This document shows, piece after piece, positions 36,290-64,000 of a DNA stretch of 64,000 bases. A program made the translations under genes and the position numbers. Under the pieces are notes generated by a model that saw only the letters and a list, made by a program, of their open reading frames with translations, was not told where the DNA came from and did no database searches. Numbering within the stretch: position 1 is the first letter of the stretch; every line of letters starts with the position of its first letter. Source of the stretch: Octopus vulgaris (lineage: Eukaryota). The stretch spans positions 17,608,001 through 17,672,000 of the forward strand of contig OX597833.1 of assembly GCA_951406725.2 (NCBI GenBank), in the 5' to 3' direction.

Positions 36290-38899
36290 CTACACTGTTA
36301 TGTGGCATCTGGTGAATAAGGGGGTTTGATATTGCTACCCTCATTTACACCTCTTGCCGCGAGGTAGGCTCATCTGGGACTCTCGACAGGAAGAGATCCA
36401 GTTTTGATTTGAAAACACCTACATCCACTTTGTATAGGTCCCTCGGACTCTTTGGGAGAATATCAAAAAGCTGTGGTCCCCTGAAATCCAGGCTTGTGCA
36501 GTAACTGGTCCTGAAGCATGATGTCATTGCTTGGATCTTTGGCAGTGTCGACCCGTTCTGACATTTGTGTAGCTTTCAATGCCAAAATTTGGCGCAATTC
36601 CTTCCAGGATCTTTCAGATGTATATTACTGCATACCTCTCCAGTCTTCGCTCCAAAGAGTAGAGTCTTAGCTGTTTCAGCCTTTCTCCGTAGCTGAGCTG
36701 TTGCAAAGAGACGCCCTTCTTTGTGAAGCTTCGCTGGATTGCTTCAAGGTCCGCTGTTAATTTTACACTGTTGGGTGACCATAGCTCTGATCAGTAATCC
36801 AGGCGGCTTAGGACGAGTGTCCTCCAGAGGACCATCTCCCTGGTTCTGCATTTTGTTGCCATCCTGGTAATGTGTACTTGGAATGAGGTATCATTACTCA
36901 TGTCGATACCGAGGTCCCTCACTGATTTAGGCTCTGGGATTGTAATCTCATGTGGACCAGTGTACTCTGTAAGTTTTATATTCAGTTTTGGACGCTAGTA
37001 GCGCAGAGCTTGGAATTTTTCAGCATTAAACTGCATATTATAGTCCTCAGCGCATCTATAAATTAAGTCCAACTCCTGCTGCATGAGTGCAACATCGCTG
37101 GGGTTCTGTATTCTCTGTGATACTTTCGTATCGTCTGCGTAGCTAGCAAGGGTGGCTATCTGGGCAGCTGAGGCATATCTGAGAGGGCCACTATGAAAAG
37201 AAGTGGTCTCAAGACAGTGCCCTATTGAACACCGCTCACTATTTGTGTTTCCATTGAGGTGGCTCCATTGGCCAGCCTGGCTTCTATCTTTCAGAAAGTC
37301 ATGCAACCACTCTCCAAGTTTTCCAGCTATGCCGAAATCACGCAGTTTATGGCATATCATACCGTGATCCACTTCATCAAAAGCTTTTGTAAAGTCAAGG
37401 TATATTACGTCCACATTTGAGTTGTTGAGTAACTGTCTTAATACCCATAGTGCAGCAAGAGCTGGGTCAGACAGCTCCTACCTGGCCGAAAGCATGCTGG
37501 GTATCACTCGGCAAGTCGTTTTCTTCAAGGAATGCGATTAGTTTCCCTTGAACTATTCGTTCCATTACTTTGCTGATGTGTAAAGTCAAAGAGATAGGCC
37601 TATAGTTTTTGGCATCTACTCTGCTTCCCCCTTTATGGATTGGGCATATTATTCCCTCCTTCAGTTTGCTTAACAGCCTGCCATTTGCAAGAATGCTCTG
37701 GAAAAGAATCTGTTTTGGTCTCGCCTGGGTACGCTTACACGATTTGAGGAGGATTGCTGGGAAACCATCAGGACCAGCAGTTGAGTTTGCGTCCATCTCA
37801 TCTATGGCTAGTAGTAAATCTTCTTCTCTAATGTCAATGTAATCCATCGTAACTGCCTCGCTGGTTATAGGTGAGGCGGAAAAGAAATCCACTGATTCAT
37901 TCACTTGTCTTTGTTCCAACGGGGTGGCAAAGACACTTTTGAACTGGTCATTCAGTACCTCACTGATCCTGGTTGGACTATCTGTGAGGGAGCCATCATT
38001 TTGGAAGAAGGTCCTATCTTGCAATGTGCTGAGGCTGTCTCTTTCGCATAATGAAAGATGACCTTTGGGTTTGACTTACGTTTTTTATAACCCGGGCTTC
38101 TTTGTCTGGTCCCTCCCTCACATAAGATTGTTGCAGGCTTTTTTCAATCTCCATCAGTGTTGTTTTTAGGCGGGACTTTTCACTAGTTTTGGAATGTTGG
38201 TTGAAGTGATTTGAAACCTTCGTCCGTCATCTCATGAATACCTTTCTCTTGGAATCTTGTTCTCTTTTGTGTTGGCCTTGTGCTCTGGAATATATTTCTA
38301 GCATATGGTTTGCGTAACAGACATGAAATATTCTAGTTTCATGCCAATGTCTGGTGTGGAGAGACAGTTCGGCCAGTCCTTTCTGAGGATCTCTTTTTGG
38401 ATCGATTTCCAGTCTGCTTTGGGGAAATTCAGAATGGAGGAATTGTGGGTGCTTCCTTTAGACATTACGTCTCTGGCTACTTTTGGTCCATACATAGACA
38501 ACTCTATTATTCTGTGATCCGAAACTAATGTCGGCGTCACTTTCACATTATGAACGATATCCATATTGTTTGTAGAGCAGAGATCCAAAATGTTATTCAC
38601 CTTAGTTGGTCTGAGCACAATTTGCTCCATGAATAGGGCATTGGTGGGGTCGAGCAGGGACTCCACCTGTGCTTGTTTGCAATGAGTCATTCCTAAGAGC
38701 ATGAGGTCTTCGGGTCATTTGACATTGGGAAAATTGAAATCACCTGTAAGAAATACGCTCACGTGGTGCTCCAGTTTCAGGCGATTTCTTGAATTCTTGT
38801 GAGGCAATCGTCAAACTTGTCTCTGTGGTTTGGAGCTTCCGGTGAGTGATATGTATTGCATACAACTATATTGCGTTGTCTTATGTATACACTTAGAGT

Positions 38900-49911: not shown

Positions 49912-50027
49912 TCAGACTTCATATAACAGAAACTGCTTTAATTTGGTTGGTAATGGTAATATATCGATATCTTCTTTACGAACCATTTGTAAGATGATTT
50001 CACGACAAGCATTCTGTAATGATGTCA
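49912..50027 (-). CDS. NEURL2: NEURL2 coding exon 2, SOCS box
   Basis: Acceptor TTTCTTTCCAG| then (G)TG-ACA: VTSLQNACREII...IDILPLPTKLKQFLLYEV*, a typical SOCS box. Phase matches the exon-1 donor. Joined CDS is 795 nt (264 aa plus stop). Confidence 0.9.
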
Positions 50028-55555: not shown

Positions 55556-55991
55556 GACAGAATATCCACATTTTAGTGAAATATTTGCAGTTTTGCACAT
55601 TCTAATAACACCCAGAGGCATATCCTTTGCTATTTTTCTGAGATTTTGCAATCTGAAATCCGAGGTGTTTGTCTTACCTTAACGTAGTTCTCTGGGAGCT
55701 TCAGCAAGACACAGAGTGTAACAAGGCTGGGCCTTTGAATTACAGGTATAATTCAATTTTGCCAGCAGAGTGGACTGGAGCAACGTGAAATAAAGTGTCT
55801 TGCTCAAGGACACAAAAGGTCATCAAGAATTGATCTCATGACCTTATGATTCAAAACCAAATACCCTGACCACTAAGCCAGATGCTTTTGTGGAGTACTC
55901 AGCCACTTTTATGTTAATTTCACAAGCAGGCTGTTCTGTTGATCAGACCAAGTGGATCCTTTGCTGTTGTAACCAATGGTGAGCTAGTTAA

Positions 55992-56717
55992 CCCTTTCAT
56001 TACTGTATTTATTTTAAGATGCTCTGTGTTTCTTTCAATTATTTTAAATATAACAAAGAATTTAGTAAAATAACTTAGTTATGATTAAGCTAGTGTTAGG
56101 AACATAAATTGTGACTAAGGTTTGGTGAAACATTTTAATTCAGATCTTATGAAAACAAAACATTTGTACTCTAAGCCAGAGGTGGTTTCAGCCAGGTTGG
56201 TATCGAAAGGGTTAAGAATGGTTTCTCTATTATATATATTTTAACCCTTTTGTTACCATATTTCTGTTGAGATGCTCTGTGTTTCTTTCAATTATTTTAA
56301 ACATAACAAAGAATTTAGTGAAATAACTTACTTATCATTCAGCTAGTGTTAGGAACATAAATTGTGACTAAGGTTTGGTGGAACATTTTAATTCAGAACT
56401 TATGAAAACAAAACATTTGTACTCAGAGCCAGACCAGTTTCAGCCAGGTTGGTATCGAAAGGGTTAAGAATGGTTTCTCTATTATATATATTTTAACCCT
56501 TTTGTTACCATATTTCTGTTGAGATGCTCTGTGTTTCTTTCAATTATTTTAAATATAACAAAGAATTTAGTAAAATAACTTACTTATCATTAAGCTAGTG
56601 TTAGGAGCATAAATTGTGACTAAGGCTTCGTGGAAGATTTTATTTCAAAACTTATGAAAACAAGACATTTGTACCACAGAGCCAGAGCCGGTTTCGGCCA
56701 GGTTAGTAACAAAAGGG
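55992..56717. mobile_element. Three tandem piggyBac-type MITEs (55992-56211, 56245-56463, 56497-56717)
   Basis: Each is TTAA|CCCTTT...AAAGGG|TTAA. The spacer GAATGGTTTCTCTATTATATATATT occurs twice. Confidence 0.9.
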
Positions 56718-58422: not shown

Positions 58423-58454
<32 letters not shown>

Positions 58455-58467
58455 ACCGCGTGTGTAC

Positions 58468-58960
58468 CGTTGGCGATTTTTTTCCCTCTGTCTTCCCCTC
58501 TCTGGATCTTTCCTTCTCCTATGTTTCTGACAAAGAGCTCCGCTCGAAACGTTAAACTCTCCTTCTTTCCTGAGCGTCCAATAATACTATATTTGTTCCA
58601 TGTCCTCGCGTTGTTGTGTTTTTTTGTGCTTTCATGTTTGGATTAACCATATATATATATAAAGTTAATCCAAACAAGAAAACACAAAAAAACACAGCAA
58701 CGCGAGGGCGTGGAACAAATATAGTATTATTAGACGCTCAGGAAAGAAGGAAAGAAGGAGGGTTTAACGTTTCGAGCGGAGCTCTTCATCAGAAACAAAG
58801 GAGAAGGAAAGATCCCGAGAAGGGAAGACAGAGGAAAAAAAATTGCTGGCAGTGCTTACAAGGTCACATGTTGAAAGAACGGAAGTTGAAAGGTAGCCGA
58901 ATCATGTTTTTTAAAAGACAGAAGAGTTTCAAAGACAGTATGGTAAGGACAAGGAATGTG
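58468..58960. mobile_element. Tail-to-tail inverted pair of Penelope-like terminal repeats separated by (TA)n
   Basis: 58468-58647 (+) and 58664-58850 (-) are reverse-complement homologs, each with a hammerhead motif. Confidence 0.82.
58762..58796 (-). ncRNA. Minimal type I hammerhead ribozyme motif
   Basis: GUUU-CUGAUGA-A-GAGC-UCC-GCUC-GAA-ACGU-U-AAAC: intact core, 4-bp stems I and II, palindromic stem III as in PLE minimal hammerheads. Confidence 0.72.
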
Positions 58961-60234: not shown

Positions 60235-60469
60235 TTTATATAAATAAGGATAAGATCAATATTTAAATACCGATCTTATCAGGTGTCCAGCATGGGAATA
60301 AAAACCTTCAAAGGTAATAATTATTATTAAAATTATAATTTAGTGTATCTAAGAGATACCACCATGCTGGAAATAGCAGTCAAAACTTGACTCTAAAACC
60401 ACAGAGCCAAGTTTTGACTGCTATTTCCAGCGTGGTGGTATCTCTTAGATACCTTAAATTATAATTTTA
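60235..60469. mobile_element. (TA)n-embedded fold-back element (arms about 60327-60394 / 60403-60469); homolog about 22150-22405
   Basis: Direct inverted match. Shared CTGCTATTTCCAGCGTGG..TATCTCTTAGATACC.TAAATTATAATTTT. Confidence 0.78.
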
Positions 60470-60697: not shown

Positions 60698-60739
<42 letters not shown>

Positions 60740-60747
<8 letters not shown>

Positions 60748-61686
60748 AAAACACCTTTTATCAATTCAAAATGAACAATTAAATTACACCAATGCACTTA
60801 AAGGTATTCCTGATGATAGAGATGGCTTATTTGATACCATTCAACGGTCTAAAAATCATTATCAAAAGAGAGCCTATCAATGCATCAAAATGATGGTGTT
60901 GCTTTTTACACAGTAAGTTTTCCTTAATGAATTATTGCTGGGATGAAATTTTGTTTTATTTTCTGAAAATTAAGATTTCAGTAAAATTTGATTTTTCTTT
61001 CTTGCAGTGAATAAATTAATAGCTATGTATGAGGGTATTTTAAATACATTACCCCCCACTGATCATATAATAACTTTTAAGTGGAGATCAGAACTGTGTC
61101 GTAGAGATTTTGTTTGTGGTACCAGTGCCGGTGGCACATAAGAAAACCATCCGAACGTGGCCGTAGCCAGTACCGCATCGACTGGCGTCAGTGCTGGTGG
61201 CATGTAACAAACACCATCCGATCGTGGCCGTGCCAGTCTCGCCTGGCACCTGTGTCGGTGGCACATAAAAAGCACCCACTAAACTCACGGAGTGGTTGGC
61301 ATTAGGAAGGGCATCCAGCTGTAGAAACACTGCCAGATCTGACTGGCCTGGTGCAGCCTTCGGGCTTCCCAGAGCCCCAGTCGAACCGTCCAACCCATGC
61401 TAGCATGGAAAGCGGACGCTAATCGATGATGATGATATATATCAAATATATACGTTTTATTTATAATTTTGCAATTTACTTAATCATCGGTATATTATTG
61501 TTATTTTATTTTTAATATTTCTATTAAATGTAATTTTCTAGATGGTGTAATTTAATTGTTCATTTTGAATTGATAAAAGGTGGGTTTTTTCTAATTTTTA
61601 TATATATATCATATTTTGTGAAATTTGATTTAGTATTTCTAAATTGAATTTTTCTCTGTAAGTTAGGAATAATATTCCCTCAAATT
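60740..61686. mobile_element. (TA)n-embedded inverted-terminus element enclosing the USP9X fragment and a family-D retroposon
   Basis: 60740-60791 is the reverse complement of about 61543-61594. The tail TGTGAAATTTGATTT...AAATTGAATTTTT.CTGTAAGTT is shared with 62559-62620. Confidence 0.75.
60791..60918 (+). pseudogene. USP9X: Isolated USP9X/fat-facets exon fragment with splice donor
   Basis: Translates as [40 protein letters not shown], which I recognise as a conserved C-terminal segment of USP9X/faf. Followed by CA|GTAAGT. No acceptor upstream, where a repeat terminus sits instead. Confidence 0.85.
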
Positions 61687-62262
61687 ATATATATATATAC
61701 ACACACACACATACATACATGCATACAATATACATACACACATATGAAGGTTAAAAGCACATATGAGCGGGATCATTGCCAGGGACACAGATCGGCTCCC
61801 ATGCCAGTGGCATGTGAAAAGCACTATTTGAGCATGATCATTGCCAGAGTCGCCCTACTGGCACATGTGCCAGTGGCATGTTAAAAACAACGTTCGACCG
61901 TGGTCGTTGCCAGTGCCACTGGACTGGCTCCCATGCAGGTAGTACGTAAAAAACACCTTTTGAGCGTGGTCATTGCTAGAACCGCCTGACTGGCCCTTAT
62001 GCCCGTGTCACATAAAAAGCACCCACTAGACTCTCGGAGTGTTTGGCGTTAGGAAGGGCATCAAGCTGTAGAAACTTTGCCAGATCAGATTCAGCCTCTG
62101 GCTCACCAGTCCTCAGTTAAACCTTCCAACTCATGCTAGCATGGAAAGCAGATGTTAAATGATGATGATGATGACACATACATGTGTACATACAAACATA
62201 CATGCGTACACACATAGGCAGACATACACACACATCTATCAATCTATCTATATAATATATAT

Positions 62263-62622
62263 AAATTAGAGAAAAACCACTATTATGTAATTCAAACAAT
62301 GACAGACAGAAACCAAATCATAAAGAAAAAATAAAATATAAAACATATATCTAGATCACAAAAAAGTACAAAAAAAAATGAATAAACATTATATAATATA
62401 TATAATATATATGTTTATTCATTTTTTGGTACTTTTTGTGATTTAGTTATATGTTTTATAATATATTTTATTTTTCTATATATGGTTTATGTCTATCCTT
62501 GTTTGAATTACATAACAGTGTTTTTTCTCTAATTTATATATATATTATATATTTATATTGTGAAATTTGATTTAATGCTAAATTGAATTTTTCCCTGTAA
62601 GTTTGGAGTTATACTCCCTAAT
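62263..62622. mobile_element. (TA)n-embedded AT-rich fold-back element (arms about 62263-62390 / 62410-62536)
   Basis: Imperfect inverted arms. Same tail as the 60740-61686 element. Confidence 0.72.
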
Positions 62623-63028
62623 ATGATATATATCATCATCATCATCATCGTTTAACGTCCGTTCTCCATGCTAGCATGGGTTGGACGGTTCGACCAGGGA
62701 TCTGGGAAGCCAGAAGGCTGCACCAGGCTCCAGTCTTATCTGGCAATGTTTCTACAGCTGGATGCCCTTCCTAACGCCAACCACTCCGTGAGTGTAGTGG
62801 GTGCTTTTTACGTGCCACCTGCACAGGTGCCAGGCGAGGCTGGCAACGGCCACGGTCAGATTGGTGCATTTTACGTGCCACCGGCACGGAAGCCAGGCGA
62901 GGCGGCGCTGGCATCGGCCATGAGTTGGGTAGTGCTTTTTACGTACCACCAGTCCAGGGGTCCTGGCATCTGCCGGGTGCCAGTCATAGGATTTCGATTT
63001 CACTTGCCCCAACATGTCTTCGCAAGCA

Positions 63029-63318: not shown

Positions 63319-63997
63319 CTCCATAGAGTTGAATTATCCGTACTTGTTTAGTTGTGCCATAAACATCAACTATGGCGTATAAAGGACCATCTTGATATGG
63401 TATATTTTTGGCACAAGGTCCTTGATCCAGTCCATTGATAATAAAATGCATCTCAGCGCGGTCATCATTTACTACATACATGATACCTATTCGACTGCCA
63501 ACATCAGTCGGCAAGATACTTCCCTTTTTTGGAATACAATAGCCATTTTTACGCTCCATAGGGAACCGTACGGGTAACAGAAGGCTACGACTAAAAGTAC
63601 CACGCGGAGTTTGAATTAAGTCTTCGTTTCCCACAACAGGTTGGTATGGTTCGGTAGATTGATCCTCATCAATTTCAATGTTCCCAGTGAAAATACGATT
63701 GTGAGATTTATTCACAGCATAGATCCATGATTTGCCCATGTTAGCAAGATCCGGTAGAGCATACTGCGGTAATTTGAAATGGTTACGTGGATCGAATTGT
63801 GTTAGACCAATACGTAGGTGACCACTCCATCCACGCTCTGTCTTTTCAATTTCCACAAGGAAGATCTCTCCTGGTTTTAGAGGTTCTTCACTAAATGTCA
63901 GTGCATGGGCAAAACTAGTTTTACGGTAAGCCACCAGATTTTCATGAAATAATTGAATATTTTCCCCATGATAGGGATGAAATCGAGTTGGAGGCAT
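63319..63997 (-). CDS. NEURL2: Neuralized-like protein 2 (Ozz-E3-like), coding exon 1, NHR domain
   Basis: [17 protein letters not shown]...[39 protein letters not shown]...GSRIG...MHFIING.DQGP...[22 protein letters not shown] is a recognisable NHR domain. Start context AAAATG. Donor G|GTTTGT after 63319 (phase 1). Confidence 0.92.
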
Positions 63998-64000
63998 TTT

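Follow-up and report, generated by a model that had tools for sequence, protein, structure and literature searches.

Introduction

Several described systems resemble the locus analysed here. In the human SVA 5′ transductions LINC02916 and UQCRC1, canonical splicing is combined with read-through that extends as far as the 3′ end of an element lying in an intron (PMC12593883). Semi-processed pseudogenes are known as well, among them preproinsulin I and a TMF1 copy in intron 1 of CYBB (PMC4151081), while in Adineta vaga host genes framed by Penelope pLTRs have been reported (PMC3846280), and insertions of Penelope-like elements have been described as comprising an inverted 5′ copy, a tail, and a hammerhead (PMC8557442, PMC4209133, PMC11167929). 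Our search of article texts yielded nothing that describes half-spliced retrocopies, or transduction of 5′ sequence, in octopus, although the repeat families treated below may already be named in supplementary repeat libraries, and the main text of PMC13282606 contains no occurrence of "transduction" or "retrocop".

Here we examine a 64,000-nucleotide stretch of the Octopus vulgaris genome (GCA_951406725.2, contig OX597833.1, forward-strand positions 17,608,001 to 17,672,000; hereafter the window), in which approximately 650 nt (647 nt) of USP9X-derived DNA lies inside an intron of another gene. The insert is a half-spliced retro-fragment, the general anatomy of which is already known from human SVA. 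An original prediction, made from the letters of the window, had described it as a gene fragment captured between the inverted termini of an element; in the sections below, we consider in turn the organization of the locus, the origin of the insert, the two repeat families that surround it, and the routes by which it may have arrived.

Organization of the locus

The host gene is encoded by the minus strand: its Neuralized exon ends at 63319, its SOCS-box exon occupies 50027–49912, and the splice phases of the two match. The insert, flanked by these two minus-strand exons, is thus antisense to the host gene, as had been proposed, and sits within a 13.3-kb intron. We take the gene to be NEURL2 from its Neuralized plus SOCS-box domain layout. 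The features referred to throughout this text, in window coordinates, are as follows.

49912–50027, minus strand: last coding exon of the host gene, SOCS box (Pfam E 2e-06; splice phase fits)
60701–60740, no strand: (AT)20 microsatellite, target of the Penelope-type repeat, judged by its sequence and by family copies sitting in AT tracts
60740–60791, minus strand: left arm, a short inverted copy of the Penelope-type unit that begins at the unit's internal AT tract and pairs with 61543–61594
60790–60803, plus strand: 14-nt end of the upstream USP9X exon, identical to the letters that precede the GT donor in the source
60804–60912, plus strand: complete 109-nt USP9X exon (109/109 identical to the source; FAF-X match; 591-nt intron absent)
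60913–61112, plus strand: stretch of unique sequence retained from the next USP9X intron, beginning GTAAGT (10 mismatches and 1 gap against the source intron)
61113–61436, plus strand: retroposon (LINE 3′ end) from the source intron, where it has the same place, with its (GAT)4 end as the end of the copy
61437–61442, no strand: (AT)3 between the retroposon tail and the repeat unit, read from the sequence
61443–61686, plus strand: sense copy of the Penelope-type unit, including the "right arm" and a terminal tail, its start 11 nt past the predicted hammerhead cut
63319–64000, minus strand: host exon with the Neuralized (NHR) domain, continuing past the window edge (Pfam E 3.5e-37; donor position)

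The elements that the original prediction had listed are present: the arms 60740–60791 and 61543–61594 pair with 2 mismatches in 52 nt, 41 open codons run from 60791, a GTAAGT donor lies at 60913, and the retroposon is farther on at 61113–61436. The first two nucleotides of 60790–60803, CA, are common to the left arm and the USP9X exon end. The host pre-mRNA intron would include 123 nt antisense to USP9X mRNA, and on the host-sense strand the arms are predicted to pair around the insert with a fold z of −10.4, a value that only restates the inverted repeat. The USP9X copy, in which we saw neither a start codon nor a promoter, is most likely inert and functionless. The same host intron also contains three tandem copies, 76–96% alike, of a 253-nt unit (55932–56674). 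At 60328–60469, the window holds a 67-nt inverted pair with an 8-nt loop and 94% complementarity.

Origin of the insert

The peptide encoded by the insert, which the original prediction had recognized as USP9X, corresponds to residues 2375–2414 of human FAF-X/USP9X (E 8.5e-20). When the 2.8-Gb genome was searched with the DNA of 60785–61100, only two places were found, the window itself and a locus on contig C9 that is 96% identical, and a protein search returned two matches among three candidates. Contig C9 carries more DUF3517 exons upstream, and its next downstream exon matches FAF-X 2416–2446, which identifies the locus as a multi-exon USP9X gene; the separate intact copy, with matching exon and downstream intron, that a captured fragment supposes does therefore exist. 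With the other exons of the gene located on C9, an overlapping USP9X gene in the window is ruled out.

The sole DUF3517 locus found besides these two is a single intronless open frame of 3775 codons (11.3 kb) at C4:81319202-81330529 (+) (L139:2202-9998 and L140:1-5529), with UCH and DUF3517 domains and USP34 as its best solved-structure match (E 1.5e-186). USP34 has many exons in other animals, and the intronless frame may thus represent a retrogene of very large size that has taken the place of its parent.

At the source, a normal acceptor precedes the 109-nt exon, and the final 14 letters of the previous exon, situated 591 nt upstream, are those of window positions 60790–60803; the window joins this exon end directly to the 109-nt exon, and the 591-nt GT-AG intron is precisely absent. 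Ten letters of the 14-nt exon end are informative, giving a chance of ~2e-6 by base frequency. Downstream, 524 nt of the next USP9X intron have been retained, and the copy breaks off within the (GAT)n tail of the retroposon. Aligned with the source over the stretch that begins with the exon and ends in the tail, the window has the same letter at 588 of 617 positions, with 109/109 in the exon and a difference of ~5% between the window-type intron and that of the assembled source; no copy-specific A-to-G change, the signature of ADAR, occurs among the differences.

Taken alone, the RNA origin, by which the insert would be a DNA copy of half-spliced USP9X RNA, is strongly favoured by the sequence comparison. 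The original prediction had left the template as USP9X genomic DNA or pre-mRNA, and the second of these is retained, because the 591-nt intron has been precisely removed; genomic DNA as template is ruled out by the spliced exon–exon junction. The lack of an upstream acceptor, correctly noted for the window, is likewise explained, since the upstream intron was spliced out and 60790–60803 is the end of the previous exon. The insert would accordingly constitute a DNA record of an RNA mid-splicing, in which a 591-nt intron had gone before the one that follows it.

The retroposon in the retained intron

The retroposon at 61113–61436 occupies the same place in the source intron, with the same truncation point and flank, and two letters are common only to the window and source copies among 24 other copies, the source copy also having letters of its own. 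By these letters, the window retroposon is best read as a descendant of the one in the source intron. It was brought along with that intron and for this reason is no part of a capturing element. The source copy (L055, on C9) is shortened by a 15-nt deletion and shares several letters with a different subgroup of copies, features that possibly reflect gene conversion after its split from the lineage of the window copy.

As to its nature, the retroposon is homologous (71–84%) to the sequence downstream of the reverse transcriptase fragment in 8 of 12 RT-bearing loci, and one of three frames scanned at such loci gave RVT_1 at E 1.5e-13. This homology to the 3′ ends of RT-bearing loci suggests that the "family D" retroposon of the original prediction is a LINE 3′ end or a non-autonomous relative, the LINE presumably being of the RTE clade. 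The copy ends in the (GAT)n tail, which is where the family's own insertions end, and an AT tract follows 10 of 25 such tails, that of the window included. Retroposons of this family were also found at AT ends of the Penelope-type repeat family at 10 + 1 other sites, whichever of the two was inserted first, and at 0 control sites. Elsewhere in the window, 36998–38714 (−) holds broken frames that we read as a LINE endonuclease and reverse transcriptase.

The arms as a Penelope-type repeat

Both arms derive from one repeat unit: the right arm belongs to a longer sense copy (61443–61686), whereas the left arm is a short fragment in inverted orientation. This 244-nt unit has 2935 candidate matches in the genome, and the 40 that were scored are 93–96% identical at full length. 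A hammerhead motif (core, stems I–III, and cut triplet), predicted by motif, lies upstream of the unit in 4 of 30 loci; in Rfam, no hammerhead was reported among 69 matches in five loci, all 69 being below the gathering score. In a sample that favours full-length matches, the unit starts within 17 nt of the predicted hammerhead cut in 23 of 29 other loci, and in the window it starts at +11.

The inverted arm starts at the unit's internal AT tract in 7 of 29 other loci, as it does in the window, and its length varies between loci, with inner ends at unit positions 1 to 103. Inverted-plus-sense insertions without filler occur at many loci, including one (L067) with an arm nearly equal in length to that of the window, and the family displays inverted and partial-tandem insertions set in AT tracts, with fixed ends, as well as small internal jumps in the arms at L023 and L032. 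BLAST to the unit, together with inspection by eye, found no other host-exon filler between arms in the loci examined. No autonomous Penelope partner was linked to the family in 20 loci; beside two of these, weak frames below the cut-off matched RVT_1 (E 0.0017) and GIY-YIG (E 0.0061), and they probably derive from nested other families.

In light of these comparisons, the arms are to be read as an ordinary inverted-plus-sense insertion of a high-copy, hammerhead-bearing Penelope-type repeat and not as capturing termini; the idea of inverted termini that captured the fragment has to be abandoned, given that such arms exist without filler at many loci. A Pack-type DNA transposon with terminal inverted repeats was also considered and rejected, as the arm length varies by locus and the filler is spliced, not genomic.

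Related repeats were observed nearby and in the sampled loci. A fold-back repeat at 62246–62620 and 62632–63027 belongs to a sister family that has this terminal tail too, and a reverse copy of the LINE-end retroposon adjoins the AT end of the repeat. Another, at 58451–58868, has a hammerhead-like core in each arm and is, we presume, also Penelope-type. At L078 and L089, the same ~330-nt element, with a hairpin and a CTAG end, is nested in two copies of the hammerhead repeat; we take it to be Helitron-like.

Contigs from sequencing runs

Contigs from four runs (X1, X2, X3, and X5) were placed on 60741–61690. In none of the four did a contig cross the arm–exon junction; the assembler may have dropped a junction that lies beside a huge repeat, or the animals may be without the insert, the window-type letters then being a USP9X allele. 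A 188-nt contig identical to the window intron copy is present in X1, X2, and X3, beside a second type with nine other letters, and X5 has the source-like intron type only. Observed depths in X1, X2, and X3 were 75.1, 7.38, and 26.6; the depths expected for two loci are 67.4, 5.3, and 17.5, and two alleles would give at most 95.6, 12.4, and 27.5. The depths, contig depth being a poor measure, lean toward an allele only in X3. Across 60913–61100, the retained intron exists in four haplotype-like versions (window, assembled source, X1–X3, and X5) that are ~4–5% apart, which is high for one locus.

Routes of insertion

We consider the best explanation to be a LINE-driven 5′ transduction of USP9X pre-mRNA into an older Penelope-type palindrome, to which we assign a probability of roughly 0.5. 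A LINE reverse transcriptase would have started at the (GAT)n tail lying inside the USP9X pre-mRNA, and the copy would have been truncated at its 5′ end 12–14 nt into the upstream exon and joined at the 2-nt CA microhomology; the palindrome would have come first, in the host intron, with the insert entering its AT-rich centre second. The sequence 5′ of the element is the flank of a source element elsewhere, and the copy has both a spliced junction and an end at the element's 3′ end, as in SVA-type 5′ transduction. When the insert is removed in silico, arm and sense unit join through ACCA, and CAA flanks the insert on both sides. An empty ACCA-type junction is present at one other locus, which was the one true break among the 30 sites read out of 63 with an atypical next letter.

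The window arms have two differences, against a mean of 2.33 within loci (12 pairs, one locus counted twice) and 2.38 between loci, so that arm-to-arm identity carries no signal as a clock. Nevertheless, arms that differ like typical family members, beside an exon copy with no change, fit an insert younger than the repeat; direct dating of repeat against insert gave no significant separation (4/231 versus 0/122, p 0.30; versus 4/312, p 0.73). The locus may be young enough for an empty allele still to exist.

Against LINE-driven transduction, the duplication is just 3 nt (CAA), with (AT)3 between tail and duplication, and the tail is internal in the pre-mRNA, so that early termination or internal priming must be assumed. 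For this retroposon, landing precisely where an inverted arm meets a sense unit is also rare (one other match of tail to unit start was found, without a left arm), the usual start of the window's sense unit is also predicted by a one-step Penelope event, and the arm–exon junction is absent from the contigs of all four runs. The broader proposition that Penelope-type machinery, by itself or with a LINE enzyme taking over, copied nascent host pre-mRNA in one step, either by starting inside an intron-embedded unit or by jumping onto the pre-mRNA, is a tentative one that falls short of even odds. If it is true, the many Penelope-type units in octopus introns would serve as portable points of initiation through which half-spliced host RNAs become fixed in the genome.

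In the first form of this proposition, a USP9X haplotype carried a Penelope-type unit right behind the intronic tail, and a single pre-mRNA of exon, exon, intron, tail, and unit was copied by a Penelope protein starting inside the RNA; one strand of the target would have given rise to the main copy and the opposite strand to the short inverted arm. Internal initiation and extension from both strands are reported in vitro for a Penelope-like element (PMC11167929), retroposon tails directly adjoin the unit start at three other loci (L016, L027, and L065), and the diverged intron with an identical exon is what a separate haplotype would show. The contig depths of X3 lean the same way and those of X1 and X2 are intermediate, although contig depth is not copy number. 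The assembled source, however, has no Penelope-type unit behind its tail, the fit of ACCA and CAA would be chance, and the two letters at which the arms differ require two RNAs or later change. We regard this form as rather unlikely.

The second form, a template jump at the GAT tail during Penelope integration, is close to the template switching of the original prediction and is likewise rather unlikely. Here, the enzyme, on reaching the 5′ end of the ribozyme-cut RNA, would continue on USP9X pre-mRNA or hand the DNA end to a tail-bound LINE enzyme. Consistent with this, the two pieces of a two-strand insertion enclose the insert exactly, insert and unit share one orientation, the unit begins at its customary position (the 23 of 29 loci given above, from a sample biased to full-length matches), and short arms without filler and small internal arm jumps do occur. 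What a jump does not explain, short of an extra assumption, is the end exactly at the LINE-type tail, and the loci examined offered no second case of host exons between arms.

Capture at the DNA level (by a Pack-element, gap repair, or duplication), followed by intron loss in the copy or gain in the source, could account for the one intron retained, and a host gene with introns is reported to be surrounded by Penelope terminal repeats (PMC3846280), but this route is highly improbable in view of the precise GT-AG removal, the end at the retroposon tail, and an exon contig that in all four runs continues upstream into 166–1022 non-window letters, as the source intron would. Least probable of all is an assembly artefact or private chimeric molecule, for, even with the arm–exon junction missing from the contigs of all four runs, a genomic misjoin would not yield a correct splice junction, and the window-type intron letters recur unchanged in three of the four runs, contigs showing presence only and dropping rare variants.

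Comparison with known systems

LINE-driven 5′ transduction places the insert nearest to the SVA cases: it consists of spliced exons followed by retained intron and ends at the 3′ end of a retroposon in the source intron. In contrast to SVA, it ends in a (GAT)n-tailed LINE end without poly(A), its duplication is at most 3 nt, and a Penelope-type palindrome encloses the copy. The intronic repeats of this repeat-rich genome can, on this evidence, carry host exons to other chromosomes without poly(A), and standard retrocopy screens would therefore miss such copies.

The locus shares with semi-processed pseudogenes a partly spliced retrocopy placed in reverse orientation in another gene's intron, but where these end at a poly(A) site, the octopus insert, only 647 nt long, ends at an intronic retroposon tail. 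As in Adineta vaga, host sequence copied from another locus lies between direct and inverted Penelope-type repeats, whereas the rotifer copy kept all introns and has an 8-bp duplication, and the octopus insert has had one intron spliced out. Finally, the surrounding repeat family agrees with Penelope-like elements in its inverted and sense pieces, AT-microsatellite targets, two fixed ends, and a hammerhead core with a palindromic helix III, and departs from them in the absence of a linked RT/GIY-YIG frame and in an optional tail of ~75 nt, as compared with 30–40.
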